A stretch of DNA of 64,000 nt from an alpha proteobacterium SCGC AAA536-G10 (GCA_905182395.1 CAJJBL010000022.1:281-64280), one strand, 5' to 3'. Numbered from the stretch's first letter, positions 45,707 through 62,575 are shown. Made by a program: numbers and translations. Notes: generated by a model not told the origin, from the sequence alone.

Positions 45707-45777
45707 CAATGATATCCAAAGAAAAATATCAATTACTCTTTACCTTTAATAATCATTTCGATTAAACTATGAGTATG
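45707..45777 (+). repeat. junction element copy 1 (A-part truncated, B-part complete)
   Basis: ..ATGATATCCAAAGAAAAATATCAATTACTCTTTACC-18 nt-TAAACT-ATGAGT-ATG. -35-like 45739-45744, -10-like 45763-45768, ATG 45775. Confidence 0.8.
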
Positions 45778-46251
45778 AAAAAATTATTCGTTATATTATC
45801 ATTTTTAATTTCAATCACCTGTCTGTCATCACAAAGTTGGGCATTGAAAGAAAAATGGTTTCCCACAGATAAACCAAATTGCCTTGTTTGGAATTCAGAT
45901 CCTCAACCAGAAGAAACTGTTAAGTGGTCAGGAGAATGTTTGAATGGAAAAGTCAATGGTATCGGCACTTTATCATGGTCAATTGGAGATCAGTATATAG
46001 GTGAATACAAAAATGGTAACATGAATGGACAAGGGACTTATAGTTGGCAAAAGGGAGACCAATACACAGGTGAGTGGAAAAATAATCATATATATGGACA
46101 AGGTACTTTTACTTTTGTAAATGGAGATAAATTTGAAGGTGAATGGAAAGATGATCTGATGCATGGACAAGGAACTTATACTTTTGTAAATGGTAAAAAA
46201 ATAGAAGGTATATGGGAAAATGGAAAAAAAGTAGAAGTGACTAAAACCTAA
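45769..46251 (+). CDS. secreted MORN-repeat protein
   Basis: Signal peptide MKKLFVILSFLISITCLSSQSWA (from ATG 45775). About 5 tandem YxGEWKNGxxxGxG MORN repeats. Confidence 0.75.
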   Translation: MSMKKLFVILSFLISITCLSSQSWALKEKWFPTDKPNCLVWNSDPQPEETVKWSGECLNGKVNGIGTLSWSIGDQYIGEYKNGNMNGQGTYSWQKGDQYTGEWKNNHIYGQGTFTFVNGDKFEGEWKDDLMHGQGTYTFVNGKKIEGIWENGKKVEVTKT

Positions 46252-46304
46252 TCTATAAACTAAGATATTATCTAATCAATTAATCCTAAGAGTTAAAAAC
46301 TTGA

Positions 46305-46700
46305 ATGCCTAACACTTCAGAAGATATAGTCTATAAACACCATAACGCAATTAATACTCAAGATGAACGAGAATATCTCGATAGCGTAAAGTTTCCTTTT
46401 ACCTATCAGAATTATAATGGTGTTTCTATCACAATTAAAGATGAAGAAGACTATAGAACTAATTATCAAATGCCATGGGATATAATAAAGGATACTGAAT
46501 CAAACTGGTCCCATACGGAAATGGATAAAATTGAAGAAGTGGCACGTTCCAATTCGTCTGTGGTTTTTAAACTTTTAATGAGAAGAATAAATAAATCAGG
46601 CAATACAGATCTCATTATTCAAGTGATTTGGATTGCTGTCTCTACACAAGGGAAATGGGGTATCCAATTTAGGCATAACCTTGGTATTCCTACCCCTTAA
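46305..46700 (+). CDS. hypothetical protein
   Basis: 131-aa ORF filling the cassette. No recognised family. Confidence 0.4.
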   Translation: MPNTSEDIVYKHHNAINTQDEREYLDSVKFPFTYQNYNGVSITIKDEEDYRTNYQMPWDIIKDTESNWSHTEMDKIEEVARSNSSVVFKLLMRRINKSGNTDLIIQVIWIAVSTQGKWGIQFRHNLGIPTP

Positions 46701-46711
46701 AATGGAAATAC

Positions 46712-46750
46712 AAAAACTAATCTGTAAACCATGATAGTATCCAGAGAAAA
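46712..46750 (+). repeat. junction element copy 2 (A-part; B-part degenerate up to about 46797)
   Basis: AAAAACTAATCTGTAAACCATGATAGTATCCAGAGAAAA, 12 nt after the upstream stop. Confidence 0.75.
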
Positions 46751-46860
46751 CCATTAATTATTTTTTAACAATAATAACTACTCTAATTAAACTTAGATAT
46801 ATTTATAATTAACAAGTATCAACAGCAATATCATCTCAGTTTTTAAAATAAGGATATAGT

Positions 46861-47211
46861 ATGTCTTTTTTTATTATAAAGATTTTTATAACTGCAATAT
46901 TAATTGTATCAATAAGTGAAATTGCAAAATTTAATGACCGATTAGGTGGAATTATTGGTGCAATGCCTATAACAACATTTTTAATTTTATTTTGGTTGTA
47001 TTATGAAAATAGTTCTTTAGAAAAAATTTCTAATCATATGTCATATACTTTGTTATATGTCATACCAACATTGCCAATGTTTATAACTTTTCCTTACTTC
47101 ATAAATAAATTTGGATTTTATATATCAATAATTCTAAGTATTATATTAACAATTTTATTTGTAATTATAGTACATATTATTTCTAAGAAATTTGGATATA
47201 AATTAATATAA
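46861..47211 (+). CDS. hypothetical 4-TM membrane protein
   Basis: 116 aa, strongly hydrophobic. Confidence 0.45.
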   Translation: MSFFIIKIFITAILIVSISEIAKFNDRLGGIIGAMPITTFLILFWLYYENSSLEKISNHMSYTLLYVIPTLPMFITFPYFINKFGFYISIILSIILTILFVIIVHIISKKFGYKLI

Positions 47212-47255
47212 TAAGATTACTAACAATTTTGCTAAAAAGATGATATGGAGTAAAA

Positions 47256-47498
47256 TTATTTATTTTTAGAAATTTTTAATTCTTTTTTAATTTTTTCTTC
47301 TAAATGTCCTATCATTATTCTTCTCATATACTCTGCTCTTGCTAAATCAGTAAAAGAGTATTCTCTTATATCCTCATTACTAATTCTAATAGAAAAGTTA
47401 TAAAAAGCACCACTCTTTTTTATAGTTGAAGCACTGCCAGAAGCGATTTTATTAGGACTTACAAGTGCGCCAAATTTAGTTTCAATTATATTTGTCAT
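47256..47498 (-). CDS. hypothetical 80-aa protein, paralogue A (second copy at 56138-56374)
   Basis: About 66 of the first 75 residues are identical to the 56138 ORF by hand alignment. Strong GAGGAG Shine-Dalgarno 7 nt upstream of the ATG on the minus strand. Confidence 0.6.
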   Translation of the reverse strand: MTNIIETKFGALVSPNKIASGSASTIKKSGAFYNFSIRISNEDIREYSFTDLARAEYMRRIMIGHLEEKIKKELKISKNK

Positions 47499-47570
47499 AA
47501 AATTATCTCCTCACAACATTTCTATATATTATAATATCAAATAATAAATTTAATCAATGTTTATAATATT

Positions 47571-47984
47571 TTAAAAATTAATCGTTTCTATAAGTAATTG
47601 AATTGAAAAAACTACGAGACTTAAATAAGTAAATAACATTCCAGAAATTCTTAAAAAAGGATTTGATTGGTAAAACGCAAAACAAATTGCATGTGCCAAT
47701 CTTCCATATGAGAAAACTAGACTAATTACTAATAGATAGTTAAAAGAAGATTTTCCTGTAATTTCTAAAATCAATAAAAGGATCAAGAAAATGGGAGTGT
47801 ATTCAGAAAAGTTTCCGTGTGCTCTAACATTTCTTTGTAACTTTTCCTCTGATATTTCTTTGTCCATTTTAAAAAGTAGTTTCATAACAGGACTACCCCT
47901 TAAATACCCAATACGAAATGATAAAAACAAATAAAATAAAGTAAAAATTGATGCAAAAATTGGAGTTAATGTAAGAGTGTTCAC
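47571..47984 (-). CDS. MAPEG-family membrane protein
   Basis: 137 aa, 4 TM helices; RAHGNFSEYTPIFL and GRLAH motifs typical of MAPEG/YecN. Confidence 0.65.
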   Translation of the reverse strand: MNTLTLTPIFASIFTLFYLFLSFRIGYLRGSPVMKLLFKMDKEISEEKLQRNVRAHGNFSEYTPIFLILLLILEITGKSSFNYLLVISLVFSYGRLAHAICFAFYQSNPFLRISGMLFTYLSLVVFSIQLLIETINF

Positions 47985-48063
47985 TATTTATCTAACTAAT
48001 TAAAATTTAATTTTAATACTTTCTTTATCTCAAAATATTATACATTTACAAAGAAGCGTAGTC

Positions 48064-48148
48064 AAAACCTAATATATAAACAACAATAGTATCTGATGAG
48101 AAATATCAATTACTCTTTAACTTTTATTTTGATTAAACTATGAGTACA
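48064..48148 (+). repeat. junction element copy 3 (full; 6-nt deletion in the promoter spacer; ATG decayed to ACA)
   Basis: AAAACCTAATATATAAACAACAATAGTATCTGATGAGAAATATCAATTACTCTTTAAC-12 nt-TAAACT-ATGAGT-ACA. Confidence 0.75.
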
Positions 48149-48219
48149 AATTTTATTTTTAACTATTCATTGCTATGGTTTTTAAAGTTTTTTAAATTCT
48201 TGCTAATTAAAGAAAGAAG

Positions 48220-48600
48220 TTGAATATATTGATTGCTGATATTGTATTAATATTTCATTTTGGCATTGTTATTTTCATAACATTTGGTTTATTTTTAATA
48301 CCAATTGGTTACAAATTTGGTTGGATTTGGATTAAAAATTTAAAATTAAGAATATGTCATTGTGGAATGATTATTTTTATTACTTTAGAAACGTTATTGG
48401 GAATTACTTGCCCACTGACTTCTATAGAAAATAATTTACGTGGAATTAATATGTCTACGTCATTTATATCTTATTGGATTAATCAAATTATTTATTGGAA
48501 TTTCCCGACCCAATTTTTTATCATTTTATATTCTATTATATTAGTATGGACTTTATTGATGTGGAAACTCTTTCCACCTATGATTAAAAATAGTGTTTAA
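48220..48600 (+). CDS. DUF2784-like membrane protein
   Basis: ADIVLIFHFGIVIFITFG...GITCPLTSIENNLRG resembles the DUF2784 pattern (..CPLT.LE..LR). TTG start. Confidence 0.5.
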   Translation: MNILIADIVLIFHFGIVIFITFGLFLIPIGYKFGWIWIKNLKLRICHCGMIIFITLETLLGITCPLTSIENNLRGINMSTSFISYWINQIIYWNFPTQFFIILYSIILVWTLLMWKLFPPMIKNSV

Positions 48601-48627
48601 AACCTCACTATCATAAAATGATAAGTA

Positions 48628-48717
48628 AAGACTAATCTATAAATTTAATAAGCATCATTAGATGAATTTCAATTACACTTTACCTTTTTAAACTATTTTG
48701 ATTAGACTATGTATATG
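48628..48717 (+). repeat. junction element copy 4 (full)
   Basis: AAAGACTAATCTATAAA...TTTCAATTACACTTTACC-18 nt-TAGACT-ATGTAT-ATG. -35-like 48679-48684, -10-like 48703-48708, ATG 48715. Confidence 0.8.
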
Positions 48718-49614
48718 AAAAATAAAGATTGGATATTAGTGATTTTACTTGGTCTCTTTTGGGGATCAAGTTTCTTTTTTGTTGAGATGCTTTTAAAGTA
48801 TCTAAGTCCCTTTATGATCGTTTATCTTAGAGTGTCAATTGCATCTATTTTTTTAATTGTGTTTATAATCATTCGAGGTACTAAATTTAAACTATCACTC
48901 AAAAACCTTTTTAATCTTTTTATAATGAGTTTATTGAATAACATTTTTCCTTTTCTTCTTATAACTTTTGGTCAACAAACTACGACAGGCGGTTTAGCAT
49001 CAATTTTAAATGCAAACACATCTTTTATTGGAATACTTTTAGCATCATTATTTTTACCTCTAGAGCGACTAAATTTTTATAGATTAATAGGAGTTTCAAT
49101 TGGAGTTTTAGGAGTAATAATCGCTATTGGTTATCAAAATATTATTCAATTAAATGATGATGATTTAGGTAAATATTTAATTTTAATTGCCACCCTTTCA
49201 TATGGTTTTGCAGGAGTATGGGGAAAATTAAAACTACAAAATTTTACTCCTATTATCGCTGCCACAGGTATGTTAACAATGAGCACTATAATTCTTACTC
49301 CATACGCTTTTACAATGCACTTAGAAGAAATATATTCTTTAAACTTTTTTATTCTTAAATATGCATTTGTTTTTGCAATAATTTGCTCGGTATTTGCTTA
49401 TTTTTTATATTTTAAAATACTTGAAAGTGCAGGAGCAGGAAATCTATTAATTTGTACTATAATTATTCCTCCTTCATCAATCTTCCTAAATGCTTTTATA
49501 TTAGATCAAATTATTACTTTTAATGAATGTTTGGGATTAATAATCATTATATTAGGTCTAATTATATTAGATGGTCGCTTAATAAACAAACATACCCCCA
49601 CCTCCCAAAAATGA
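48715..49614 (+). CDS. EamA/DMT-family transporter
   Basis: About 10 TM helices, two EamA halves. Start taken at the element-borne ATG 48715 (ORF track: 48709). Confidence 0.75.
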   Translation: MKNKDWILVILLGLFWGSSFFFVEMLLKYLSPFMIVYLRVSIASIFLIVFIIIRGTKFKLSLKNLFNLFIMSLLNNIFPFLLITFGQQTTTGGLASILNANTSFIGILLASLFLPLERLNFYRLIGVSIGVLGVIIAIGYQNIIQLNDDDLGKYLILIATLSYGFAGVWGKLKLQNFTPIIAATGMLTMSTIILTPYAFTMHLEEIYSLNFFILKYAFVFAIICSVFAYFLYFKILESAGAGNLLICTIIIPPSSIFLNAFILDQIITFNECLGLIIIILGLIILDGRLINKHTPTSQK

Positions 49615-49615
49615 C

Positions 49616-49659
49616 AAAAAAACTCAACCTATAAAATACGATAGTATCCAGAGATAAAT
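49616..49659 (+). repeat. junction element copy 5 (A-part only)
   Basis: AAAAAACTCAACCTATAAAATACGATAGTATCCAGAGATAAAT begins 2 nt after the EamA stop, then diverges into unrelated, G+C-richer sequence. Confidence 0.75.
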
Positions 49660-49810
49660 TTTCTAAGTGGGAAGGGTTCTATTCGCGCTATTTATCTTCT
49701 TATTCTTTATATTATTAAATCAATTGAAGTATTAATTAATTTTAAATATTATTTTCTGTATATAAGAATAGAGAATTAAGATAAATAAAATATAAATTAT
49801 TGGATAGAGC

Positions 49811-50257
49811 ATGGATAAACAAAACTTATTTGACAAATATGGTGGTGTACCAACTATTAAAGCGATATTAGAAAAATTTTATAAAGATTTATTAAGTCTT
49901 AGATGGACAAGAAAAATGTTTGTAAATGTTAATATGGATAAACTTATATTACATCAAATTCAATTTGTTAGTTTTGCCATGGGTAAACCAGAAAGTGAAT
50001 TTGATGATAAAAGATTAAGAGAAGGTCATGCAGGTCTGGGAATAACGGAAGCACAATTCTAAGAAACAGTTGGTATACTAGTAAAAGTTCTTACAGACTT
50101 CAAAGTTAAGTTTGATGACGTCAAAACTATAGGTGATGCTATAAACACTAAGAAACATTTAATAGTAAATGTCCCAGGAATTAAAAAATCAGCCAAAAAA
50201 GTATTAAAAAAATTAAGAGAAAAAGAAAAATACAATAATACAAAACTTATTTTATAG
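49811..50257 (+). pseudogene. group I truncated haemoglobin (trHbN-like) with in-frame TAA
   Basis: LFDKYGGVPTIKAILEKFYKDLL...HQIQFVSFAMG...LREGHAGLGITEAQF-TAA(50060-50062)-ETVGILVKVLTDFKV... The globin fold continues in the same frame after the stop, down to TAG at 50255-50257. Confidence 0.7.
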
Positions 50258-50271
50258 TTAATCTTATTTGT

Positions 50272-50455
50272 AGAACTGCCAGTAAGTATTAATCATCCAA
50301 TATCAACTAAAGATGTAACTTCAAAATGTTTCTTAGATATGTTGTCAGTCTTTTCAGAGTTTGAAACTAATTTAAGAAAAGAAAGACAGATGGAAGGCAT
50401 TACAAAAGAATTGGATATTGGTCGTGCAAATGTTTATCCTGCATTGGAGGTTTAA
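50272..50455 (+). pseudogene. serine recombinase (resolvase/invertase) remnant
   Basis: ..INHPISTKDVTSKCFLDMLSVFSEFETNLRKERQMEGITK-ELDIGRANVYPALEV*. This is the end of the catalytic domain and E-helix fused to the last helix of the HTH. No N-terminal catalytic Ser region. Confidence 0.6.
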
Positions 50456-50709
50456 TATTAAAAGAGTAGGTAATGATTGCACATCTGTCTATCATTCATA
50501 GTAGTGTTAAATTCTAAAATAATGGAAAAGAAATGCATAAAACAATAAAAATAATTATCGGTACCGTTCTCATCATATACATTGTTCTGGTTGTTATGCA
50601 GTTAACAGGAATAAGTTTATTTTAAGAAGTAATAGTTACTAATTAATATAAACCAGAAGTGTTAAAATTAAGAAATTATTAATCCCCTACTGCTTAAAAC
50701 TGACAACTA

Positions 50710-50799
50710 GAAACTAATCTATAAATCACGATATTATCTAGAAAGAAATATCAATTACTCTTTACCTTTAATATGTATTTTGATTAAACTTTGACAATG
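50710..50799 (+). repeat. junction element copy 6 (full)
   Basis: GAAACTAATCTATAAATCACGATATTATCTAGAAAGAAATATCAATTACTCTTTACC-18 nt-TAAACT-TTGACA-ATG. The ATG at 50797 opens only a 13-codon ORF. Confidence 0.8.
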
Positions 50800-51020
50800 A
50801 CAAAATATCTTAAAAATAACCTCAGTTTAGTTATATAATTTCACCCAACTTAATATAACAATTTGAAACAAGAGAATTTTACATACAAATCTAGGAAAAA
50901 AGTTTGATAGAAATGTTCTAAAGATGATGAATTATCTAAAGAAATTTTTAAAAGGTTAAAAAGAAACTATTGGGAAAAAGTAGATTTAGATAGAGAAGTT
51001 CATAAGTATATAAAATAATT

Positions 51021-51536
51021 ATGTTTAGGAAAGGTTTAGACACTATGGGAATGATGAGAAGTAGATACATACCACATTGTTGTTTTGTATATTTGACTGA
51101 AGAATTAAAATATCTAACCACAATAACTAAATGTGATGAGGAATGGATTAGAAATGATATGGAAAATGTAGAAGAATTTAAAAGAAGAATTGAAAGTGGC
51201 GAAATGTTTGAAGATGAAATACACCCATATGAAATAAGTCAAAAAGGAGATGATTTTTACCTTTATGAATGTGAACCAATTAAAAATGAAAGGTATAAAG
51301 AATTACTACAAAAGTATGGAAAATTAGAAGAATACATTAATGAAGAAAAACCTATTGATGTATTTTTTGGAATTGGAGAAGGTAGAATCTATGTTGAAGA
51401 GGGTAAGTTTAATACCAAAGAAGAAGGAGGGTCACATATCTATGATGAAAATGGTTATGGAACAGAAAATCCAAAATATAGATTTACAAAATTAAAAAAA
51501 ACGGAAAAATTATTTAGAAAAGTTAGATTAGGTTAA
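51021..51536 (+). CDS. hypothetical acidic protein
   Basis: 171-aa ORF. No recognised family. Confidence 0.4.
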   Translation: MFRKGLDTMGMMRSRYIPHCCFVYLTEELKYLTTITKCDEEWIRNDMENVEEFKRRIESGEMFEDEIHPYEISQKGDDFYLYECEPIKNERYKELLQKYGKLEEYINEEKPIDVFFGIGEGRIYVEEGKFNTKEEGGSHIYDENGYGTENPKYRFTKLKKTEKLFRKVRLG

Positions 51537-51537
51537 A

Positions 51538-51587
51538 CAAAAACCTAATCTATAAACCACGATAGTATCCAGAGAGAAATATTAATC
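51538..51587 (+). repeat. junction element copy 7 (A-part only), last element before the island 1 right end
   Basis: CAAAAACCTAATCTATAAACCACGATAGTATCCAGAGAGAAATATTAATCA, directly after the stop at 51534-51536. Confidence 0.8.
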
Positions 51588-51700
51588 ATACACCAATTAA
51601 ATGCCCTCAGATTGTCACACAGATTTGACACAGTAAGGCAATAAAAGGTACTATTATTCAATAATAAATCTTTAAGAAAATAAGGGTTTAAAGGGGTCAA

Positions 51701-51762
51701 CTGGATAGAAAACTAGACTACGAATCTAGAAGGAAGGAGTTAGAATTTTCTCTAACGCACCA
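51701..51762 (+). pseudogene. degenerate partial copy of tRNA-Arg (att direct repeat; D-loop to CCA)
   Basis: CTGGATAGAAAACTAGACTACGAATCTAGAAGGAAGGAGTTAGAATTTTCTCTAACGCACCA versus tRNA 41051-41112: 52/62 identical by hand alignment. The 5' acceptor half is missing and the T-arm and acceptor pairings are broken. Confidence 0.8.
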
Positions 51763-51849
51763 TTTCTGATTATTTTTTTACAAAACTAAATCTTCAATTT
51801 AGAACTTTATTTGATATGTCTTTAAGAACAGATTATTTTAAAGGAATAT

Positions 51850-52006
51850 AATGAGATGGTCATGATTAGTTTTTATTTTACTTTTAGGAATTATTCTTTG
51901 TTTAATTATAATAAATTATAATCAAGAAATAGTTCAATTCTTAATTGTATCTGATAATATAGATTCGTTAATCAACTATCTACAGAGTTTTAAAGAAACC
52001 AAATGA
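51850..52006 (+). CDS. small single-TM protein (paralogue of 42551-42694)
   Basis: MRWSWLVFILLLGIILCLIIINYNQEIVQFLIVSDNIDSLINYLQSFKETK. Same ATGA stop/start overlap with the next ORF as in island 1. Confidence 0.45.
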
Positions 52007-52200
52007 AATATAAAACACTAGAAGAAATACAAAAAAATTCCGTATGGATAAAGTTACAATCTCATGGCACTGAAAAAGAACAACTTGATAAACAATTCTT
52101 GTCTCTTACAGAAGATGAAAAGATTGTTGCAATTGACTTATTTGAGTCTTTGAAAGTTGTGATGGAAAATGTCCTTAAAGAAAAGAAAACTCATCATTAG
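52003..52200 (+). CDS. hypothetical protein
   Basis: 65-aa ORF translationally coupled (ATGA) to the small TM gene. Confidence 0.4.
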   Translation: MKYKTLEEIQKNSVWIKLQSHGTEKEQLDKQFLSLTEDEKIVAIDLFESLKVVMENVLKEKKTHH

Positions 52201-52216
52201 ATAGTATCAATTTATT

Positions 52217-52457
52217 ATGTATTTTAAAAAAAAAATATTTATGTGAAAACTATAATTTTCCTTTTAAGACTGTTTGGAATTGTAGGAAGACGATCGAGGA
52301 GAAAAACTAGATATTACTTTATTATAACTATATCCGTATTTTTAAACATCAATATCGATGGCGATGCAAATCTCAATTACAAAATATAAAAGGATTTAGG
52401 TGATGCGTATTAAGTCCTTCTAAAATGAAATTATCACTATATGAAATCAATGTTTAA
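52217..52457 (+). pseudogene. decayed copy of the Cys-rich gene 43163-43399
   Basis: Nucleotide-level alignment along the whole gene. Frame disrupted in the 5' A-run, Trp codons changed to TAG and TGA, and three Cys TGT codons changed to TAT. Confidence 0.7.
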
Positions 52458-52592
52458 TCTTGCTCTTCTTTGGAAGATACAAAAGTATATCAGATATATC
52501 TGTTATTTTATTATTATTGTAATGATGATTTTAATATGGATTAAATTGTCTTCTCAAATTTAATTTGAGATGTAATAAGTTAATTTATTTTC

Positions 52593-53177: not shown

Positions 53178-53344
53178 TCTTTTTCTAATCGTTTTTGATT
53201 TTAGATAATCAGTTTGTATATTGAATATGATTTTTTAAAAAAATATGTCATATTTACATAGTACTAATTAAAATAGTCAAAAATTAATGTTAATTTTTTA
53301 TAATTTAATTGTATTAAAAGTTAGAAATTTTCTAAAGGAAATAC

Positions 53345-54814: not shown

Positions 54815-54918
54815 TTTGTTATATAAACCTAGAATGATCAAATTTTATGCATTTATAATATCAATGATAATTAAACTAATTTAGTTTCAAACATAACCAA
54901 TGGATAAGTTAACTTATA

Positions 54919-55401: not shown

Positions 55402-55560
55402 ATTGAAATCTACTGAATTTATTATCTACTACTATAAAGTTTTTTAGAAAGTTATTTATTTAATCAGATAGAAAAATAACAGAATAATAATCAATAGTAA
55501 CGAAAAATTTATCCAAACATAGCGCTAAATCGTAATACTAATTTCTTCAAAAATGATAAT

Positions 55561-55652
55561 CAAAATCTAATTAGAGATAAACATTGTTTCTAGACTTAAA
55601 TATTAATCTTATCTTTACCTTTCTCAATCATTTTGATTAAACTATGAGTATT
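55561..55652 (+). repeat. junction element copy 9 (A-part diverged, B-part complete, ATG decayed to ATT)
   Basis: CAAAATCTAATTAGAGATAAACATTGTTTCTAGAC...ATCTTTACC-18 nt-TAAACT-ATGAGT-ATT. -35-like 55614-55619, -10-like 55638-55643. Confidence 0.75.
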
Positions 55653-55702
55653 AAAAAAAGTATAAGTTGAATATCTATTTTCGCGCTTTGGAGAATTATA
55701 TT

Positions 55703-55870
55703 ATGAGCAAACAGACTATAGGTTGGATAATAGTTGGTAGTTGTTTACTATGGGGTTTGTTAAGAGCTGGAGATTTGGTTGAACCTAATTTTGTTATAAA
55801 TTTTTTAGCAATTGGGGGTTTTTGTTTAGGAATTCACTTAACAAAAAATAATGAAGATAAAGAAGAATAA
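55703..55870 (+). CDS. hypothetical small 2-TM protein
   Basis: MSKQTIGWIIVGSCLLWGLLRAGD...FLAIGGFCLGIHL. ATG at 55703 preferred over the TTG at 55667. Confidence 0.35.
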   Translation: MSKQTIGWIIVGSCLLWGLLRAGDLVEPNFVINFLAIGGFCLGIHLTKNNEDKEE

Positions 55871-56137
55871 TTGTCGTCAATCATAGAATGATAGGTAAAT
55901 TATTATGGATAAAGAATCTCAAGAAAAACTTCGTACTTGGTGGGATGATGGAGACAGTAAATTAAAAAAATCTCTGTATATTTTTTTATGTCTGCAAATA
56001 CTTTTAGGAATTATCTGGTTTATTGAATATATTTTCATATAAAATAAGTTCATATTAAAACAAAAACAATCAACACTTAATCTTTAACCAATAACAGCAA
56101 ATATAATATCAATTATTCTTAAATTTTATAATTGTTT

Positions 56138-56374
56138 TTACTTAGGTTTTTTTATTTCTTTTTTAATTTTTTCTTCTAAATGTCCTATCATTATTCTTCT
56201 CATATACTCTGCTCTTCCCAAATTAGTAAAAGAATATTCTCTTATGTCATCATTACTAATTCTAATAGAAAAGTTATAAAAAGCACCATTCTTTTTTATG
56301 CTTGAAGCACTCCCAGAAGCAATTTTATTAGGACTTACTAGTGTACCAAACTTGGTTTCAGTTATGTTTGCCAT
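56138..56374 (-). CDS. hypothetical 78-aa protein, paralogue B (see 47256-47498)
   Basis: MANITETKFGTLVSPNKIASGSASSIKKNGAFYNFSIRISNDDIREYSF...; GGTG/AGAGGTG SD-like sequence upstream. Confidence 0.6.
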   Translation of the reverse strand: MANITETKFGTLVSPNKIASGSASSIKKNGAFYNFSIRISNDDIREYSFTNLGRAEYMRRIMIGHLEEKIKKEIKKPK

Positions 56375-56493
56375 AAAAATTACACCTCTATATAGTATTA
56401 ATTATTAATCTAATATTAAAAATTAAATTAAATCAAACATAATCTCTATCAAGGTAAATATTGTAAGCTTTAATATAAGCAAATATTTTTGAT

Positions 56494-56547
56494 TGATAAT
56501 ATTACTTGTTTACCTTACGCAACTATTTTGATTAGACTGTTAATATG
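56494..56547 (+). repeat. junction element copy 10 (B-part only)
   Basis: ..GATAATATTACTTGTTTACC-18 nt-TAGACT-GTTAAT-ATG. -35-like 56509-56514, -10-like 56533-56538. The ATG at 56545 is the ORF start. Confidence 0.75.
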
Positions 56548-56817
56548 TTAATCTTAATCAAAGAGCTCTCTAAAAATGAATATGAAATTATAGTTAACTC
56601 GGACACTTCAACTAAACATATTGTTACTTTAACAGATATAGTTTATCAAAAATTTACTAATGAAAAGATTACTAAAAAGGAACTTTTGGACTTTAGTTTT
56701 AAATTTCTATTAGAAAGAGAACCTAACACTTCAATCCTTTCTTTTTTTGAATTAAAAATCATTACAAGATATTTTCCTGAATATGAAGTGAGCATTAAAA
56801 AATGGTGTGGGTTTTGA
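56545..56817 (+). CDS. hypothetical protein
   Basis: 90-aa ORF beginning at the element-borne ATG. Confidence 0.45.
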   Translation: MLILIKELSKNEYEIIVNSDTSTKHIVTLTDIVYQKFTNEKITKKELLDFSFKFLLEREPNTSILSFFELKIITRYFPEYEVSIKKWCGF

Positions 56818-57043
56818 AATAAATTTAATATGATCAAAGCAGTTAAATATGATAGAAAACTAGAGTTTGATTTAACTGTTTATAGTACATTGAAGGATGA
56901 ACTTATGAATGATGATGATAAAAAAAATTGGTGGTACTGGGTAGCAACGTATGCATGTATCTCATTAGTATTATTTGGTATTTTTTCTATTTATGTAACT
57001 ATCAATTAAAAATTAATAAAAATATATCTCCTTCAAAGTAGAT

Positions 57044-57135
57044 AACTAAGTTTCATTCTGTAAATGACGATAGTATTAAAAATTAAGTACCAAACACTCT
57101 ATCTTCTCGATCTATTTCAATTAATTTAAAACTAT
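57044..57135 (+). repeat. junction element copy 11 (strongly degenerate)
   Basis: ..AACTAAGTTTCATTCTGTAAATGACGATAGTATTAAAAATTAAGTACCAAACACTCTATC... retains the CGATAGTAT core and ACTCT. Confidence 0.45.
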
Positions 57136-57245
57136 AAATATTTTCATAAAGTAATAATATTTAATATTTTATTTATTAAAATTTATATCTTTATTTGATT
57201 TTTTTAAAAATCATGTAACCTAATACTTTGTTATAAGGAGTTAGG

Positions 57246-57638
57246 ATGAAATTAATAAAATTAAATTATATTTTTTTCTTCTTAATTTTTTTTTCAATTA
57301 ATGCAATTGCTCAAGGACCTACTTCAGGTATACTTTGCAAAAACTTAAAAAACACAGTCTCTCTTGAATTTGTATTTAAAAGTAATGAGGATGAAATATT
57401 TGCAAATGCTTTCAAAAGGGTAAATGGTAAATTTATTAAAGTTGGTAAAGTTGTAGGACAAAAGCCATCATCATTTATACTTTTTGAAGATAAATACGCA
57501 TATCTCGGCATTGATTTTGCTTGGCATTTAGATAAAGTTACCAAAAATCTCAAACCTATTATTTTAAGTGAAGGGACTATTAAAATGGGTGCAATGCCTG
57601 AGACATTGTCCTGTATTAGTAAAAATTTTTGGTATTAA
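57246..57638 (+). CDS. hypothetical secreted protein
   Basis: Signal peptide MKLIKLNYIFFFLIFFSINAIAQG. AAGGAG Shine-Dalgarno 6 nt upstream. Confidence 0.5.
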   Translation: MKLIKLNYIFFFLIFFSINAIAQGPTSGILCKNLKNTVSLEFVFKSNEDEIFANAFKRVNGKFIKVGKVVGQKPSSFILFEDKYAYLGIDFAWHLDKVTKNLKPIILSEGTIKMGAMPETLSCISKNFWY

Positions 57639-57690
57639 ATAAAAAGAATTAATTAACTAAACATTTACTTACTAAGTATTGTTCTTTTAA

Positions 57691-57748
57691 AGAAAAGTAT
57701 CAATTATCCTTTGCCTACCATAATCATTTTGATTAAACTGTGATTATA
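57691..57748 (+). repeat. junction element copy 12 (B-part only)
   Basis: AGAAAAGTATCAATTATCCTTTGCC-18 nt-TAAACT-GTGATT-ATA. -35-like 57710-57715, -10-like 57734-57739. Confidence 0.7.
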
Positions 57749-57781
57749 AAAAACTAGTTTTTAGAATATTAAGATTATTTA

Positions 57782-58054
57782 ATGAATTTTAAAGATGGTG
57801 AAGAAGCAGCGGAAAAAGAAATTAAAGAAAACGGTTTTGATATTAATTTATGGAATGAGTTTTTAGAAAATCCTGACGATTTTAATAAACTTTTTAGTAA
57901 ATTATTAATAGGTCAATCTGACAATTTTATCCAAGGTTATAGGAGTTATTACAGTTCTTATTCATTATGGGCAGATACAAAAGCATATAGAAACAACCTT
58001 CCTTTTTGGAGAACACCATGGAAAAAAACAAAGAAACCATTAAATGAAATATAA
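57782..58054 (+). CDS. hypothetical protein
   Basis: 90-aa ORF, 42 nt downstream of the element's -10-like box. Confidence 0.4.
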   Translation: MNFKDGEEAAEKEIKENGFDINLWNEFLENPDDFNKLFSKLLIGQSDNFIQGYRSYYSSYSLWADTKAYRNNLPFWRTPWKKTKKPLNEI

Positions 58055-58106
58055 CAATAAATTAGTTAATTTAAGAATAATTTAGATATCTTATAAATAA
58101 ATTATT

Positions 58107-58649
58107 TTACTCAATAAACTCTATTTCTTGAATATACAATTCTGCTAAATGATCTCTTCCAAAAGCAACTAAACCTATTGATGTAATATTTTGAGGATTA
58201 ATTGTTTTAGATAAAAAGGAACCTGATCTCTTAAATTCTCTAATTGGTAGCTTTATTTCCTTATAATCTTCCTCAACATTGAAATCTAATTGATAATATT
58301 GCCATGGGAAAAATGTTCCGGTTGTTCTTATATGTACAAAATATTTTTGATTATTGCCTTTAGCAATTACTTTAATAAATTGAGATTTACTTAAATTAAT
58401 ATCATTAAGTTTTCTACGAATTTGAATAAATCCACCATTATTTTTTGTGGAAACCTTACCAGAAATATAGGCAAAGTTTTTATTATCTTTAGAATTAAAA
58501 AAAACTTTACCTGATGAAATTCCACCCATCACCTTATCAGAAACAAAAGACCATTTTTCTGGATTTTGAAAATTATCTTTTAAAATTGTGTCAGAATAAG
58601 ATTGAGTGATCATAACTAATAAAAAAACTGTTGTTGTGAGAATGTACAT
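58107..58649 (-). CDS. secreted CIA30-domain protein (complex I intermediate-associated protein 30 family)
   Basis: Signal peptide, then WSFVSDKVMGGISSGKV...STKNNGGFIQIRR, the CIA30 signature. Confidence 0.6.
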   Translation of the reverse strand: MYILTTTVFLLVMITQSYSDTILKDNFQNPEKWSFVSDKVMGGISSGKVFFNSKDNKNFAYISGKVSTKNNGGFIQIRRKLNDINLSKSQFIKVIAKGNNQKYFVHIRTTGTFFPWQYYQLDFNVEEDYKEIKLPIREFKRSGSFLSKTINPQNITSIGLVAFGRDHLAELYIQEIEFIE

Positions 58650-58712
58650 TCTATATTAATTAACTAAAATTTAATAATTATCAAATAAAATTATTTTCTT
58701 AATAGGTTATAG

Positions 58713-58910
58713 ATGAGCAATTGGAAAACAGATTTTGAAGTTAAGTTCCATTTACACTTTGAACATCATAATGGAAGACAAGAAAAAAAATATAATTCTT
58801 TAATTGTAGAAGCAGAATCTGAAGAAAAAGCAAAAGAAATAGTTTTTTATCAATATGAAAATAGTAGTTTTTTAGTAATTGATGAAGTTAAAAAATTATG
58901 GAAATACTGA
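58713..58910 (+). CDS. hypothetical protein
   Basis: 65-aa ORF. Its stop is immediately followed by junction element copy 13. Confidence 0.35.
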   Translation: MSNWKTDFEVKFHLHFEHHNGRQEKKYNSLIVEAESEEKAKEIVFYQYENSSFLVIDEVKKLWKY

Positions 58911-58986
58911 TTTATAAATCCTAATAGTATCTATGGTGCAATATCAATTTCTCTTTAGCTTATATTATTTTGGTTAAACTTTAATA
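58911..58986 (+). repeat. junction element copy 13 (full but diverged; 15-nt promoter spacer)
   Basis: TTTATAAATCCTAATAGTATCTATGGTGCAATATCAATTTCTCTTTAGC-15 nt-TAAACT. Confidence 0.65.
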
Positions 58987-59015
58987 AGTTTATTTATAAT
59001 ATTTTATTGATTTTA

Positions 59016-59561
59016 CTAATTTGAACGAATACCCCATTTCTGATATTTTATAAGCGCATCACTACAAAATTGAAATGAAAGATTTCTAATAAGATGCAAA
59101 GGTGAACCTCCCCTACCTTTTCTGGATTCTCCTTGAGAAACTGTCAGGCATAATTTTTTATTTTCAATCAGACTGACACTACCATTACTCAAAAATATAA
59201 ATTTCTGAGCATCTCCTAAATTACAATTCTTTAAAGATAAACTTCCGGGCATGACAACGGATAAAACTTCCATACAGACGTTGAATCCAGAAAGAAAAAA
59301 CTCATTATTCATTATTCTTTTTCTATCAAAACTTTGATCTATTGCGATACTTCCTTCATACGAATAACAGGTATGAGCCTGAACCCCTCTATTAGTTTTT
59401 GCTCGTGATTTATAACCTTTTATATCAATACAATAACCTCTTTGGTCATCAATTTGATTGATCAGGTAAACTTCTACTAATTCACCAACAGTTTCACTTC
59501 TTACAATATTTGGTAAAATAAATATCAAAGCGGTTAATAATATGAGTAAGTTTTTTTTCAT
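59016..59561 (-). CDS. hypothetical secreted Cys-containing protein
   Basis: Signal peptide MKKNLLILLTALIFILPNIVRSE and several Cys pairs. No confident family. Confidence 0.45.
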   Translation of the reverse strand: MKKNLLILLTALIFILPNIVRSETVGELVEVYLINQIDDQRGYCIDIKGYKSRAKTNRGVQAHTCYSYEGSIAIDQSFDRKRIMNNEFFLSGFNVCMEVLSVVMPGSLSLKNCNLGDAQKFIFLSNGSVSLIENKKLCLTVSQGESRKGRGGSPLHLIRNLSFQFCSDALIKYQKWGIRSN

Positions 59562-59838
59562 TATTCATTCTCTCTCAAATGATTTTTTCTAATGTATAAG
59601 AGGTTTACTAAAGGTGCTAATAACCAAAGTATTGCCGAACCCCATAAGATTAAACTTTCTGGAAAACTATGACTAATGAAGTATCCAAAAAATAATAATA
59701 TAAGAAGGACATTTAGTACGATTGTAATATTCTTTAAAGTAATATTAATATCCTATTACAATTTTTATACAAACTACCTCACAATCAAAATCTGATAAAC
59801 TTTTATTTGAACCTATTTAGTAAAATATTAGAATAAAA

Positions 59839-60390
59839 CTATGAAAAGTTTACTGATACAATTAAAGATGAATTGTTATTAATAGGACTGTTGACATCTT
59901 TACTAACACGATGAAAGTTGATGTTATTATTTGCATTACTATTGAGTATATCTTCACCATCTAGATAACGAGATATTTCAATATCTTCTAATAAGACTGG
60001 TTGTCGATGATGAATATGATTGATCGCATCTATTGAACTGCGAGTAAGTATCAGACAACCAATTTCATTATAAAGACCTGCAAAAATATGTGATGAACAA
60101 TAGTGATAGTAAGGAATTTTTTCTTTATCTTTTCTTTGCCATTCATACCAGCCATTATGAAATATTACACATCGTTTAGTATTCCTAAAGGAAGTTTTCT
60201 CATACATTGTTTCAGAACGACAGTTTATAAGATTCATGTTTTTCTTCCAGGAGGGTGCATATGACCATTTCATCAAACATACATTATCTTTAGTTTTAAC
60301 CGGAATCAATTGTGAAGGTGCCACGTTATACGATGACTCATACTTAAGACCAAACATATCGTTAGAGGAAATTACAAACCGACCACACAT
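59839..60390 (-). CDS. SOS-response-associated peptidase (SRAP/YedK, HMCES-like abasic-site sensor)
   Basis: MCGRF N-terminus (the catalytic Cys2 requires a start at the Met at 60390, not 60408); YNVAPSQ, WYEW and HHRQPV motifs. Confidence 0.8.
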   Translation of the reverse strand: MCGRFVISSNDMFGLKYESSYNVAPSQLIPVKTKDNVCLMKWSYAPSWKKNMNLINCRSETMYEKTSFRNTKRCVIFHNGWYEWQRKDKEKIPYYHYCSSHIFAGLYNEIGCLILTRSSIDAINHIHHRQPVLLEDIEISRYLDGEDILNSNANNNINFHRVSKDVNSPINNNSSLIVSVNFS

Positions 60391-60427
60391 AACAATATAA
60401 TAACTCACTCCCCTTAAAACAGATAGA

Positions 60428-60519
60428 TAAAAACTAATCTATAAATGCAATAAGTATCAAGAGCAATATATCAATTACTCTTAACCTTTCTAATCTATTT
60501 TGATTACACTATAAGTATG
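60428..60519 (+). repeat. junction element copy 14 (full) lying between two minus-strand genes
   Basis: TAAAAACTAATCTATAAATGCAATAAGTATCAAGAGCAATATATCAATTACTCTTAACC-18 nt-TACACT-ATAAGT-ATG. The ATG at 60517 opens only a 23-codon ORF antisense to the 3' end of the 560-aa gene. Confidence 0.8.
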
Positions 60520-60531
60520 AAGAAACCTTTT

Positions 60532-62214
60532 TTAATAAAAGAATCTTCTTTTAACAGTTGTTTGTTGTCTGACACTACTTCCATTTAAATTTGGGAAAAT
60601 AAATTGATCTGCTGATAATCTAAACATATATCTATTGTTTATTGTTATTGGTGTTAAATCCATTCTTATTGAATGTTTTTTATCTAACGCATATTCTTTT
60701 TTGTTTTGTTCTTTTAACATATCTGAAACGTAAGGTATAAATTTGTATAACAAATCTGATTGTCCTGCTTTTAATATGTATCCAATTTTTTTTGAATTTT
60801 TATTGCAGTATTTTTTTGCACTCATATAGAAGTAATCAAACACTCCGTCTAAATTGATAAATTGAGTAATATCTTTAATAGGATATTTTTGATCATTTAC
60901 TGCTTTTTTTCTAAAACCATCCACAAATTTGAAACAAGATTGCATTGCAAATATATCAACTACATTTAAAAATCGATAGTCTGCAAGAATAACATTTTGA
61001 GGAGTTGCAATGATTTCTTCTTTACTCATTGAACTAGTTGCAAATAAAATTTTATCTTTCTTTACTTTGAATTCACCAATACAAGTATAAAACTCATCAA
61101 AGAAAGTTGGGTTTTCCATTTGCCCTTTAGTCAACCATTTATCTTCTAAAATTTTTTCTGCTTCATCATCTTGTACCTTACAATATTTTTTAATAATAAA
61201 AGATGAAATGAACCAACCTAAACGAACTGCAGTAAATTTAGATAATGAGTATGAAAAACTATTCCCTGCTTGATAAATTAGACTATATTGATTGTCTAAT
61301 GTTATCCCTTTTCTTATTGGTTCTCCTTTAGGAACTTTAAATGAACGATAAACTGTCAGATATTCATCATCTCCAACATTATTAAAAATAGTTTTAGTCC
61401 AAAAATCAGTTATTGGAAATTTGCTTGATTTATCTACAAGAGAATCTTTAAACTCACCATTATTCATTGAACTATTTAAGGTTTCATTTAATTGTAATCT
61501 TTCTTCAAATGGAATATCTAATCTTCCATAACGAGCAAAAGTTTTGTCTGTAAAGTATTTACTTTGAATTGTAAAAATCCATTCAAATATGTGCCAGAAC
61601 ATTCTATTGTCAGTAATTAAATGTTCAAGTTCCTCAAACCATTTAAAAATATATAATGGCATTTCTAATGTTTCATTTGCGTCCATTTTATGTGTATGAA
61701 TATTCCATCTATATTTTGAAAATAAAAAAAACAAACAAGTATCAATATAACTCAGAGTTACTTCACCATCTTCAACGCCTGTATTACTTCCATGATGTAT
61801 TTCTAATGGGTTAAGGTAACCAAAAGATTTTAAAAACCATTCCATCATTTCTTTTGAAGTATTAGTTTTTTTTATGTTTTGATCAAATTCATTTATTGGA
61901 ACGTATTGAAAAAAGTATTTTATATTAAAAAAAGGAGTTCCATCTTTATTAGTTTTTTTCCAAACTTGTTTTTCTTGTTCTTTTATTTTATCAAGTTTTA
62001 TTTTTTTCTCTAATTCTTTTGCTTTAAATGCGTCTCGTTTTTCCCATTTTGTACGAATAGGTTCTTCAAGTTTCCAAACAACTGAATCATACAAAGATGG
62101 AAAATTATTTTTAATTGCTTTTTTTTCTTCATAGTTTTTTTTACCAAGAGAAATTTTTTTTATTATTTCAATTGCTTCTTTATTATCCATTTTTAGAATA
62201 TTCCATATTGACAT
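60532..62214 (-). CDS. large orphan protein (560 aa)
   Basis: Long uninterrupted ORF, the largest in the island. N-terminal Lys/Glu-rich coiled-coil region. No family recognised by eye. Confidence 0.55.
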   Translation of the reverse strand: MSIWNILKMDNKEAIEIIKKISLGKKNYEEKKAIKNNFPSLYDSVVWKLEEPIRTKWEKRDAFKAKELEKKIKLDKIKEQEKQVWKKTNKDGTPFFNIKYFFQYVPINEFDQNIKKTNTSKEMMEWFLKSFGYLNPLEIHHGSNTGVEDGEVTLSYIDTCLFFLFSKYRWNIHTHKMDANETLEMPLYIFKWFEELEHLITDNRMFWHIFEWIFTIQSKYFTDKTFARYGRLDIPFEERLQLNETLNSSMNNGEFKDSLVDKSSKFPITDFWTKTIFNNVGDDEYLTVYRSFKVPKGEPIRKGITLDNQYSLIYQAGNSFSYSLSKFTAVRLGWFISSFIIKKYCKVQDDEAEKILEDKWLTKGQMENPTFFDEFYTCIGEFKVKKDKILFATSSMSKEEIIATPQNVILADYRFLNVVDIFAMQSCFKFVDGFRKKAVNDQKYPIKDITQFINLDGVFDYFYMSAKKYCNKNSKKIGYILKAGQSDLLYKFIPYVSDMLKEQNKKEYALDKKHSIRMDLTPITINNRYMFRLSADQFIFPNLNGSSVRQQTTVKRRFFY

Positions 62215-62537
62215 TAAAGATAAAAAATATTTCTAGCAATCTTTACAACTTCTATATTTTTTTCTCTTTTATTTTTACTTTGTGTTTTGCTAATGATGAT
62301 CTATATCAAAAAAATAAAATTAATAATTATAAAAAAAAGTTAATTAATAAAAATCTTTTAATTAATACGACTGGAATATATGAGGAATACCTTAATAAAA
62401 GTTCTGTTGATTTATTTTTAATTGTAATAACAAACCAAAAAAATAAAAATTAATCTATTATAAAGATAATTACAAAAAACCAATCTATCCTATTTGTTCT
62501 ATTACATTGCAACGTTGGTTTCAAATAATTTCTGCTC

Positions 62538-62575
62538 TATATAAACCTAATATCGTTATTTTGATAAACTCTTAG
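62538..62575 (+). repeat. possible last, fragmentary junction element copy
   Basis: TATATAAACCTAATATCGTTATTTTGATAAACTCTTAG resembles the fused ends of the element (..CTATAAAC..ATTTTGATTAAACTATGAG). Confidence 0.35.

Follow-up and report, generated by a model that had tools for sequence, protein, structure and literature searches.

A two-part junction element heads gene cassettes in tRNA-Arg islands of low-GC SAR116 bacteria and may serve as a portable regulatory and homology block

The 64,000-nucleotide (nt) stretch of the single-cell genome SCGC AAA536-G10 analyzed here (GCA_905182395.1, CAJJBL010000022.1:281-64280; hereafter the window, meaning this whole stretch, with positions counted from its first letter) contains a recurring intergenic element of approximately 125 nt that divides a 17 kb array of small genes into cassettes. 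The copies form a single sequence family, never occur on mixed strands within a locus, and lie in islands at tRNA-Arg(ACG) genes of SAR116 bacteria, where a fixed ATG at the 3' end of the element stands before genes of 55 unrelated families. The context of the element-headed genes varies between species, with rearrangement breakpoints that fall inside the element. We propose that the element is a composite, portable regulatory junction that heads the cassettes of these islands and through which they recombine by homology, a reading towards which, in our judgment, the balance of probability tilts modestly.

A preliminary description of this DNA had reported about 15 copies of a same-strand junction element, and that element is real. 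A direct-repeat search of 44-64 kb returned overlapping repeat families at the positions of these copies, and an nhmmer profile built from seven clear copies gave 14 matches with E < 0.01, every one of them on the + strand and confined to 45.7-60.5 kb; in the rest of the 64 kb no match was stronger than E = 1.7. To remove circularity, an independent profile was built from 104 copies taken only from other genomes and metagenomes. This profile again gave 14 window matches (E = 3.2e-31 to 1.7e-5), all on the + strand and within 45682-60546, and no window match outside 45.7-60.5 kb. The concern that the copies might resemble one another no more than AT-rich background does can be set aside, as 30 dinucleotide-preserving shuffles of the whole window produced no independent-profile match with E < 0.01. 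Most of the copies first listed were recovered; a fragment at 46238 had been overlooked, the copy at 57025 is only weak (E = 0.32), and the faint copy proposed at 62538 is found by neither profile, consisting of two short matches, AAACCTAAT and ATTTTGATAAACT, that are at best a collapsed relic. The genes named between the copies were confirmed by Pfam: MORN, MAPEG, DUF2784, EamA, a truncated globin, EthD, DUF3429, CIA30 and SRAP.

The same element is widespread in related bacteria. A metagenome scan, using an A/B-junction pattern chosen to miss the window (A and B being the two parts of the element described below), found 107 loci of ~28% G+C, with 203 copies in 104 of them; 58 of these loci are multi-copy and none has copies on both strands. 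A degenerate pattern from part B, run against 185,579 species genomes, gave 38 loci, 24 of which were confirmed by the profile and are all of the low-GC SAR116 type (low-GC 'SAR116 cluster' single-cell genomes, SCGC AAA536-K22, Candidatus Levibacter of the Puniceispirillales and similar metagenome-assembled genomes, MAGs); the other 14 are unrelated pattern noise. Altogether approximately 250 copies are known outside the window, in 128 SAR116 genome or metagenome loci, again with strands never mixed. The window's host was first thought to be a SAR11 bacterium; the genome-scan matches, and a gpt-like core protein ~80% identical to the versions in SAR116 single-cell genomes, place it instead among low-GC SAR116 (Puniceispirillales), with a window G+C of 28.5%. 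No Rfam family lies at the elements, either at gathering thresholds over the whole window or in E-value mode over 45.5-60.7 kb. The element was unmatched in a plasmid collection, and it is undescribed in the searchable literature, including the papers on SAR11 and SAR116 islands and the tycheposon preprint.

A consensus drawn from 113 unique full copies resolves the element into a 5' part, A (CCC-TTAAAACTGACAACC-AAAACCTAATCTATAAACCAC-GATAGTATCCAGAGAG-AAATATCAATTA), and a 3' part, B (CTCTTTACCTT, 8 variable nt, TATTTTGATTAGACTGT, 4 variable nt, ATG). The C-rich TTAAAACTGACAACC extension at the 5' end makes the element ~125 nt long, where ~90 nt had been estimated. Part B holds two conserved blocks, TCTTTACC (-35-like) and ATTTTGATTAGACT (-10-like), whose hexamers (TTTACC as -35; TAGACT or TAAACT, that is TANNNT, as -10) are 18 nt apart, and the conserved ATG begins 7 nt after the -10-like block. 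The spacer is free in sequence and fixed in length: over the 113 copies its 8-nt core has an identity to the consensus of 0.51-0.56, against 0.77-0.92 for the blocks. The A module has a base composition rich in C and poor in G, at 19 and 6 of 72 nt respectively. Direct reading of its sequence shows stop codons in each of the three frames, and its non-palindromic 22-nt core, CAAAACCTAATCTATAAACCAC, is the most conserved block of the element. Conservation was re-measured on 40 copies that match neither search pattern, which controls ascertainment only partly; their identity to the consensus was 0.91 for CAAAACCTAATCTATAAACCAC (which is in no search pattern), 0.78 for the -35 block, 0.77 for the -10 block and 0.51 for the spacer. 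Fourteen orthologous copies upstream of a GFA-like gene gave 0.92 for the -35 block, 0.97 for the -10 block and 0.82 for A, compared with 0.61 for the spacer and 0.80 for third codon positions. RNAalifold found no conserved pairing on either strand, and single-strand DNA folding energies were like those of shuffles (z -0.83 to +1.27).

The last 60 bases of the element resemble a promoter that terminates in a start codon, and this architecture of B suggests how the cassettes may be expressed. Sigma-70 promoters and leaderless genes are well established, and by that knowledge B would be a sigma-70-type promoter, with a -35-like block, an 18-nt spacer and a -10-like TANNNT; an ATG lying 7 nt after the -10-like block would then cause many cassettes to be expressed as leaderless or near-leaderless mRNAs. 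Among the core genes of the window only 2 of 39 have a TANNNT at -12, and no B-like sequence occurs outside the island, the signal being specific to the island and not the genome's general promoter. Part A might, more tentatively, insulate each unit from the one upstream, either as a region of Rho-type termination resembling a Rho utilization (rut) site or as a platform for protein binding.

The same anatomy can be read at the level of RNA, with the whole element acting as an intercistronic 5' untranslated region (UTR) for ribosome loading without a Shine-Dalgarno sequence, as a processing site or in antitermination, and with B being no promoter. The consensus has no Shine-Dalgarno sequence before the conserved ATG, A is unstructured and C/A-rich, as ribosome standby and rut sites are, and in two phage sequences described below the A-like sequence is transcribed, having a promoter upstream and a start codon directly downstream. 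The CTCTTTA of B also presumably resembles the core of boxA. We nevertheless regard this reading as unlikely, since two blocks with a spacer of free sequence and fixed length, followed by an ATG 7 nt after TANNNT, have the geometry of a promoter. Moreover, B-only copies stand alone before genes outside the arrays, beginning at or just upstream of the -35-like block, and minus-strand genes between co-oriented copies argue against a single long sense transcript.

The joining of the element to genes is asymmetrical. In the window and all other loci together, 188 copies contain B, and 133 of these have a + strand open reading frame (ORF) of at least 40 amino acids (aa) within 120 nt. Eighty of the 133 ORFs start at one and the same model position and 8 at an alternative ATG 6 nt upstream, and the ORFs downstream of the element belong to 55 unrelated families. 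As the downstream genes are unrelated, their shared 5' region did not arise through gene duplication. Upstream, by contrast, + strand ORFs (52 families) have stop codons that scatter from -59 to +33 relative to the start of the element. Given the fixed downstream ATG and the scattered upstream stops, the element is joined precisely at its 3' end and loosely at its 5' end. Copies that consist of A alone follow genes, and one of them is conserved beside the att region where the island ends. Two other arrangements were also considered and rejected: a fixed upstream stop codon, given the scatter just described, and a role for A as a divergent promoter of upstream minus-strand genes, whose starts lie at a variable distance of 20-240 nt.

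Many dispersed intergenic copies of similar length might also be produced by repeated insertion of a non-autonomous transposable element, such as a miniature inverted-repeat transposable element (MITE) or a repetitive extragenic palindromic (REP)-like or BOX-like sequence, and breaks in metagenome contigs do often coincide with copies, 36 of the 203 being situated at contig edges. Such edge positions are the expected breakage of assemblies at repeats with variable flanks. We give hardly any credence to repeated insertion: the element has no terminal inverted repeats and no conserved fold, no target-site duplications were seen, no copy occurs elsewhere in the 64-kb window or ever on the opposite strand, and a 3' end that coincides with the start codons of 55 gene families is unlike random insertion.

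The array is the cargo of an integrating island. A tRNA-Arg(ACG) gene, the attachment site of the island, lies at 41036-41112 on the + strand (ARAGORN and Rfam), 4.5 kb upstream of the first copy and in the orientation of every copy. The linkage to tRNA islands, put forward as a check in the preliminary description, holds more widely, as the same tRNA adjoins co-oriented elements in five other SAR116 species (loci L020, L031, L035, L043 and L046). Downstream of the tRNA is a tyrosine integrase pseudogene (41216-42200, +), consisting of a 287-aa ORF (41216-42079; Pfam PF00589, profile positions 13-137 of 172) and a 48-aa C-terminal piece in another frame. Intact homologues have 327 aa; the window copy shares 79-84% identity with the full-length integrases of L031, L035 and L040, whose C-terminus corresponds to the 48-aa ORF. 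Against TIGR02249, the integron integrase model with a cutoff of 265 bits, the full-length island integrase reaches 34.2 bits, and it matches only generic Xer and phage integrase models; it is co-oriented with the array beside tRNA-Arg. The earlier statement that no intI is present thus stands in that the integrase is not of the IntI type, although a tyrosine integrase does adjoin the tRNA.

A partial, degenerate copy of the tRNA-Arg gene at 51701-51765 (+; 84.6% identity over 65 nt to tRNA positions 16-80, E = 9e-9) is an attachment-site repeat and marks the boundary of two tandem island units. Downstream of it lie diverged homologues of small genes that follow the integrase: 51802-52007 shares 80% identity with 42497-42695, and 52214-52445 shares 71% with 43160-43390. 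From the partial tRNA copy and these diverged homologues it follows that the region comprises two tandem units, the second without an integrase, and the 17 kb array is the cargo of both. An integrase beside a tRNA and a displaced partial copy of the tRNA 3' part, the marks of a tRNA-targeting island, are thus both present, and the core genes yidC, rnpA and gpt flank the island, which places it in a bacterial chromosome. Immediately before the tRNA repeat lies an island-end sequence, the C part (51588-51700, +), with repeated arm-site-like TTGACACAG motifs; it is conserved in L031, L110, L074 and L154, and a motif similar to the TTGACACAG repeats is present at 41160-41200 as well, downstream of the intact tRNA. 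Genes for a primase, a helicase or a polymerase were not seen in the island. The idea that the element is itself a degenerate tRNA att repeat was rejected, as it has no similarity to tRNA-Arg.

Between species, the content of these islands changes in ways that involve the element. The tRNA-Arg locus carries different gene sets in different species, and among the 20 families of element-headed genes that were seen more than once, 9 have at least two different upstream neighbours (six for the GFA-like family, and four each for GST and a 90-aa family). Individual junctions can be followed more closely. In the window, Ricin-like and SRAP genes lie between the copies at 58902 and 60397; at the syntenic locus of a Caspian MAG, L011, a three-way alignment shows a single hybrid copy whose 5' part is like that at 58902 and whose 3' part is like that at 60397. 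L035 and L037 differ by a deletion between two A parts. In the window, the island end comes after a 171-aa gene and its A part; in L023, L094, L119, L132 and L146 this place is taken by B and a MORN gene, and the homology ends at model position 57, within the element. Between species, syntenic islands thus hold different genes between copies (L011, L035/L037), and the earlier suggestion of a portable homology block for cassette swapping, with gene order differing among genomes and breakpoints inside elements, is the reading we favour.

By this reading, the same ~125 nt in the same orientation at every cassette would make the copies portable homology, and RecA-type recombination between them would delete, insert and re-order cassettes, as it does with mobile regulatory cassettes of T4-type phages (discussed below). 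In less decayed arrays than that of the window, the copy pairs with exact shared runs of at least 25 nt number 7 out of 10 in L110, 3 out of 6 in L114 and 3 out of 10 in L026. Runs of this length are enough for RecA and make homologous recombination feasible. The endpoints of truncated copies are scattered, with A-only copies ending at model positions 43-84 and B-only copies starting at 26-62, so that there is no preferred junction, and the GFA-like cassette has an element on its left side only. Together with an integrase that targets the tRNA, these features favour homologous over site-specific recombination, the former being the more probable of the two. A search for the signature of circular cassettes found six contigs with an element at both ends, none of which had a terminal overlap.

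A dedicated cassette-capture system, for which the element or its A core would be the recombination site, linear rather than folded like attC, would account for some of the same observations. Orientation is strictly shared in 58 multi-copy loci, the 22-nt A core is very conserved and non-palindromic, elements bound cassette-sized indels, and a tyrosine recombinase is always near the tRNA. An A-only copy also stands at the island terminus, by arm-like sequence and the tRNA repeat, in at least six lineages, and an imperfect inverted repeat, GATAGTA...AAATATC, can be read from the sequence around CAGAGAG. We consider this quite unlikely, given the lack of a common junction and the one-sided GFA-like cassette. 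The integrase is of a generic tRNA-targeting type, not IntI, and its site, the tRNA 3' half, is unlike the element; the join is precise to downstream start codons and loose to upstream genes; and the integrase of the window is frameshifted population-wide. The suggestion in the preliminary description that the element is the recognition sequence or scar of a cassette-accretion mechanism is not supported, as truncations are scattered and the 3' half is promoter-like and joined to the start codon. A bolder version, a long shot in our estimate, would have foreign or new genes captured exactly at the start codon onto a standard 125-nt head and expressed leaderless, with the core CAAAACCTAATCTATAAACCAC as the recognition sequence for capture, exchange or control. 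A putative protein or RNA would mediate this process, and the system, whose core also occurs in T4-like marine phages near a tRNA-Arg(ACG) gene, would be a sequence-guided counterpart of integrons common to cells and phages.

Within the population of the window, the array behaves differently. Exact-protein look-ups across many samples returned island contigs that are 99.5-99.9% identical, with identical gene order; they differ only at the pseudogene level, and nearly all carry the same frameshifted integrase. The 287-aa integrase call recurs in 7 of the 8 related contigs with the complete gene in the retrieved locus, and in the eighth, L058, the gene is split further into ORFs of 192 and 92 aa. 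With its integrase frameshifted across related contigs, the island is probably immobile in this population. No sister strain with other cassettes emerged from the exact-protein look-ups, in which all contigs were of the same population and order, and the look-up with gpt gave no match. Of the 105 pairs of window copies, a single one still has 25 identical bases in common. Private changes are shared between the window copies and their orthologues in L011, which argues that no homogenisation has taken place. The window array is thus a fixed, decaying relic and not an active system, and cassette variation appears only between species, not within the population.

These last results are what one would expect if the copies were simply paralogous leaders of one family, passed on vertically and taking no part in gene flux: constant order in an island 99.5-99.9% identical across many samples, private changes shared by orthologous copies and little residual identity between copies. 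For the window's own population that description holds, and the earlier proviso that fixed positions with identical flanking genes would reduce the element to such a leader is realized there. Between species it is already contradicted, since the same element-headed genes have different neighbours, hybrid copies mark indels, and unrelated downstream genes exclude gene duplication as the source of the common 5' region. As a general explanation we therefore think it very improbable.

Decay of the island can be observed directly, and it is undergoing pseudogenisation. The globin gene is truncated (83 aa) at 49811-50062 of the window and intact (148 aa) in the 99.8%-identical contigs L051, L052, L053 and L056, and MAPEG and a 116-aa membrane gene are broken or uncalled in some contigs. 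One contig of the same population, L057 (11700-14279), diverges from the window at 50408, where the region after the globin relic is replaced by an HTH_7 gene, a formyltransferase, an A-only copy of the element and a second copy of the post-integrase genes. The replacing segment ends in an inverted copy of window 50509-50638, and its breakpoint is not at an element; this variant could be an inversion or an assembly chimera.

Part A also occurs without B, in phages. BLAST of the consensus against GenBank phages (2.3 Gb) matched the T4-like Methylophilales phage Melnitz of the Kyanoviridae (E = 6e-4), with the A-like match at MZ577095.1 73038-73068 (L166:2501-2531), and a 25-base pattern of the 5' A core found one viral contig, IMG/VR UViG_3300017706_001250 (L167). 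Scans of viral contigs with the B part and with the central A part gave 0 matches. In both phage loci a C-tract leads into a ~58-nt homologue of A, which has a consensus sigma-70 promoter (TTGACA-N17-TATAAT/TATACT) on its upstream side and a start codon on its downstream side. The Melnitz homologue is 325 nt upstream of a phage tRNA-Arg(ACG), the tRNA species targeted by the SAR116 island. No second copy of A was found in the ~55 kb of Melnitz scanned, and BLAST gave one place per record; only the A module has phage homologues, each of them single-copy. Judged by these matches, A is a separable module: islands have it together with B, island ends have it by itself, and in phages it stands in a 5' UTR. 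Its placement in phages may be compatible with a role at the RNA level, in processing, as a standby site or as a region of the termination or rut type, and the A module hints at a link between SAR116 islands and the phage group that carries the mobile cassettes mentioned above.

Several points weigh against the element as a regulatory junction that recombines by homology. Promoter activity and leaderless starts are strongly suggested by the geometry of B, which is where they are read from. A generic promoter and terminator scan, which is non-discriminating in AT-rich DNA, showed no difference from shuffles, with 137 sigma-70 sites against 138.5 expected, and the B consensus, with 8 of 12 hexamer matches, falls under the threshold of the scan tool. 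At approximately half of all B-containing copies, including most in the window, the long ORF does not start at the element's ATG. Part A has no hairpin, its 22-nt core is conserved beyond the needs of a rut site, and in the phages the A-like sequence lies downstream of the promoter, in the 5' UTR, which misfits a simple upstream operator. The related loci were found through exact patterns inside the element, so that apparent conservation is inflated. In a global synteny-breakpoint test, 33% of left ends of high-scoring segment pairs (HSPs) fell inside elements against ~14% expected, and right HSP ends were not enriched; this BLAST HSP-end test is confounded by redundancy and by the element's own conservation, and the curated cases were relied on instead. 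Finally, homologous recombination leaves unexplained how a gene was first joined to the element at its ATG.

The copies of the window, all on the + strand, illustrate the range of states in which the element is found. Copy 1 (45682-45777, E = 9.5e-22) has a degenerate A and an intact B, with ATGs at 45769 and 45775 that start the MORN gene, at the end of which lies an A-part fragment (46238-46274, E = 1.7e-5; repeat family D7). Copy 2 (46675-46797, E = 8.1e-17) has a good A and a degenerate B, with the next gene running from 46861; copy 3 (48060-48151, E = 1.7e-18), before DUF2784, has a 6-nt deletion in the predicted promoter spacer; and copy 4 (48591-48717, E = 2.2e-15) has ATGs at 48709 and 48715 that start the EamA gene. 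The EamA stop codon falls in the A-only copy that follows (49587-49661, E = 2.2e-9), inside its 5' end. Copy 6 (50673-50798) is the best in the window (E = 3.2e-31), yet its own ATG opens a 7-codon ORF only and the 171-aa gene begins only at 51021. The right end of the first island unit is formed by an A-only copy of near-perfect consensus (51536-51587, E = 5.9e-16), and the same junction of A with arm sequence is found in L031, L110, L074, L154, L028 and L037.

In the second unit, copy 8 (54254-54336, E = 2.8e-8), with a degenerate B and EthD next, has an orthologous copy in L011, as do copy 9 (55527-55647, E = 3.3e-13; ortholog at L011:1662) and a B-only copy (56501-56547, E = 8.3e-8; ortholog at L011:2588) whose ATG at 56545 starts a 90-aa ORF. 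The weak, degenerate copy at 57025-57123 reached E = 0.0013 with the window-derived profile, and its E-value of 0.32 given above is that of the independent profile. A B-only copy at 57690-57761 (E = 1.2e-10) has its ATG mutated to ATA, and its gene starts at 57782. Copy 13 (58902-58984, E = 5.6e-8), with minus-strand genes next, and copy 14 (60397-60518, E = 5e-20), whose ATG opens a 7-codon ORF only, are the left and right boundaries of the module absent from L011. A long ORF at the element's own ATG is therefore found at only three window B-copies (MORN, EamA and the 90-aa ORF). The preliminary description, in which the element ended at the next start codon, is right for these three and not for the remaining B-copies, where the gene begins 30-225 nt later or is lost.

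A number of smaller observations concern the element and its surroundings. Across the A/B junction, at about -59 to -37 counted from the ATG and a short way upstream of the -35-like block, runs an imperfect palindrome, AGAG.AAT-N4-ATT.CTCT (AGAGAGAAATATCAATTACTCT). It is the only small hairpin to recur when single strands are folded, and a dimeric protein could use it as an operator. In a variant of the element (L026:2925; L031, oriented 4788; L047:1549; L077:2508; L120:666), a small hairpin (CCCAACTTGGG or CCTAGGTTGGG) followed by a T-run is inserted between A and B, possibly as an added terminator. At window 51524-51552 the 171-aa gene ends in a sequence (TAGATTAGGTT) that is inverted and complementary to the one with which the next A part begins (AACCTAATCTA); the two pair as an 11-bp hairpin, and the same gene end occurs in 8 related loci. 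A duplication of ~310 nt (47251-47557 and 56127-56436, 84-85% identical) carries paralogous minus-strand genes of 78-80 aa in two different cassettes. Small Cys-rich (CxxC...CxxC) proteins without a Pfam match are encoded at 42691-42861, 43163-43399 and 44863-45105, and such genes lie between the integrase and the first element in many islands (L020, L046 and others); they are candidate DNA-binding or regulatory proteins of the island. A small bacterial signal recognition particle RNA gene at 26826-26918 (Rfam RF00169, 51 bits) is unrelated to the element.

Streamlined marine bacteria such as SAR11, SAR116 and Prochlorococcus have huge flexible gene pools and almost no classical mobile elements. 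A standard regulatory head would, if the proposal is true, be a simple mechanism for such genomes: any gene placed behind it could be expressed, and approximately 100 nt of homology would be at hand for recombination. The element is also a practical marker, as one profile picks SAR116 island cassettes out of metagenomes and explains breaks in their assemblies. The A module common to islands and phages hints, in addition, at a traffic of regulatory DNA between SAR116 islands and T4-like marine phages.

Comparison with known repeat and cassette systems sets the element apart from the most familiar ones. Clustered regularly interspaced short palindromic repeats (CRISPR), in which repeats of about 25-40 nt alternate with non-coding spacers of like length, were rejected, since the copies measure ~100-125 nt, stand 0.5-2.7 kb from one another and enclose protein-coding genes, and MITE, REP and BOX elements were rejected as there is no conserved pairing and no opposite-strand copy in 58 multi-copy loci; on both counts the preliminary description had come to the same view. 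The array is like an integron in being made up of small, unrelated, mostly co-oriented genes with a recurring site between them and a tyrosine recombinase at one end, and in a gene content that differs among relatives. It differs in that the site is conserved in sequence and not in fold (attC sites being R''-L''/L'-R' palindromes), forms the promoter-like 5' side of the following gene, where integron cassettes are mostly promoterless, and is accompanied by a recombinase that targets the tRNA, is co-oriented with the array and is not IntI. With an integrase at 34.2 bits against a cutoff of 265, no attC fold and no fixed junction, a classical integron was rejected.

The island itself resembles tycheposons and other integrative islands that target tRNA genes in streamlined marine bacteria (Hackl et al., bioRxiv 10.1101/2020.12.28.424599), in its inward-facing tyrosine recombinase by a tRNA, in the partial tRNA repeats that mark tandem units, and in its cargo of niche genes in a genome without classical mobile elements. 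Unlike tycheposons, it has no replication module that we could see, and the main text of the preprint contains no occurrence of 'promoter', 'intergenic' or 'direct repeat'. A further likeness is to putative mobile promoters and promoter reuse (Nijveen, Matus-Garcia and van Passel 2012, PMC3575422), in which, as here before 55 families, a highly similar 5' regulatory region precedes non-homologous genes across taxa. The SAR116 copies differ from these in forming a clustered, co-oriented array within one island type, in having an extra conserved upstream module, and in coinciding with rearrangement breakpoints.

The comparison that carries furthest is with the promoter-early stem-loop (PeSL) elements, mobile regulatory cassettes of T4-type phages (PMC2839356, Arbiol et al. 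2010; PMC4122927, Comeau et al. 2014), and a role of this type in a cellular island is undescribed in the searchable literature. Both are short, composite intergenic motifs repeated in one direction in the most plastic region of their genome, and both extend from where the upstream gene stops to where the next gene, small and often an orphan, starts. PeSLs contain a sigma-70-like promoter within the motif, which the predicted promoter of the SAR116 element would match. In both, the breakpoints of indels and replacements between relatives lie in the motifs and are ascribed to homologous recombination, and a homologue of A stands beside a PeSL-like early promoter in a T4-like marine phage. The two differ in that PeSLs are found in the hyperplastic regions of T4-type phages and the SAR116 element in an island of a cellular chromosome. 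The latter also has no conserved or unusually stable stem-loop or terminator hairpin (a few copies have the inserted CCCAACTTGGG hairpin), and no Shine-Dalgarno sequence, its ATG lying at the predicted transcription start. Its upstream module is a long block conserved in sequence rather than an AT-rich tract, and it shares no sequence similarity with the PeSLs of coliphages. The SAR116 element is thus not a member of the PeSL family, although it behaves like PeSLs and like putative mobile promoters.

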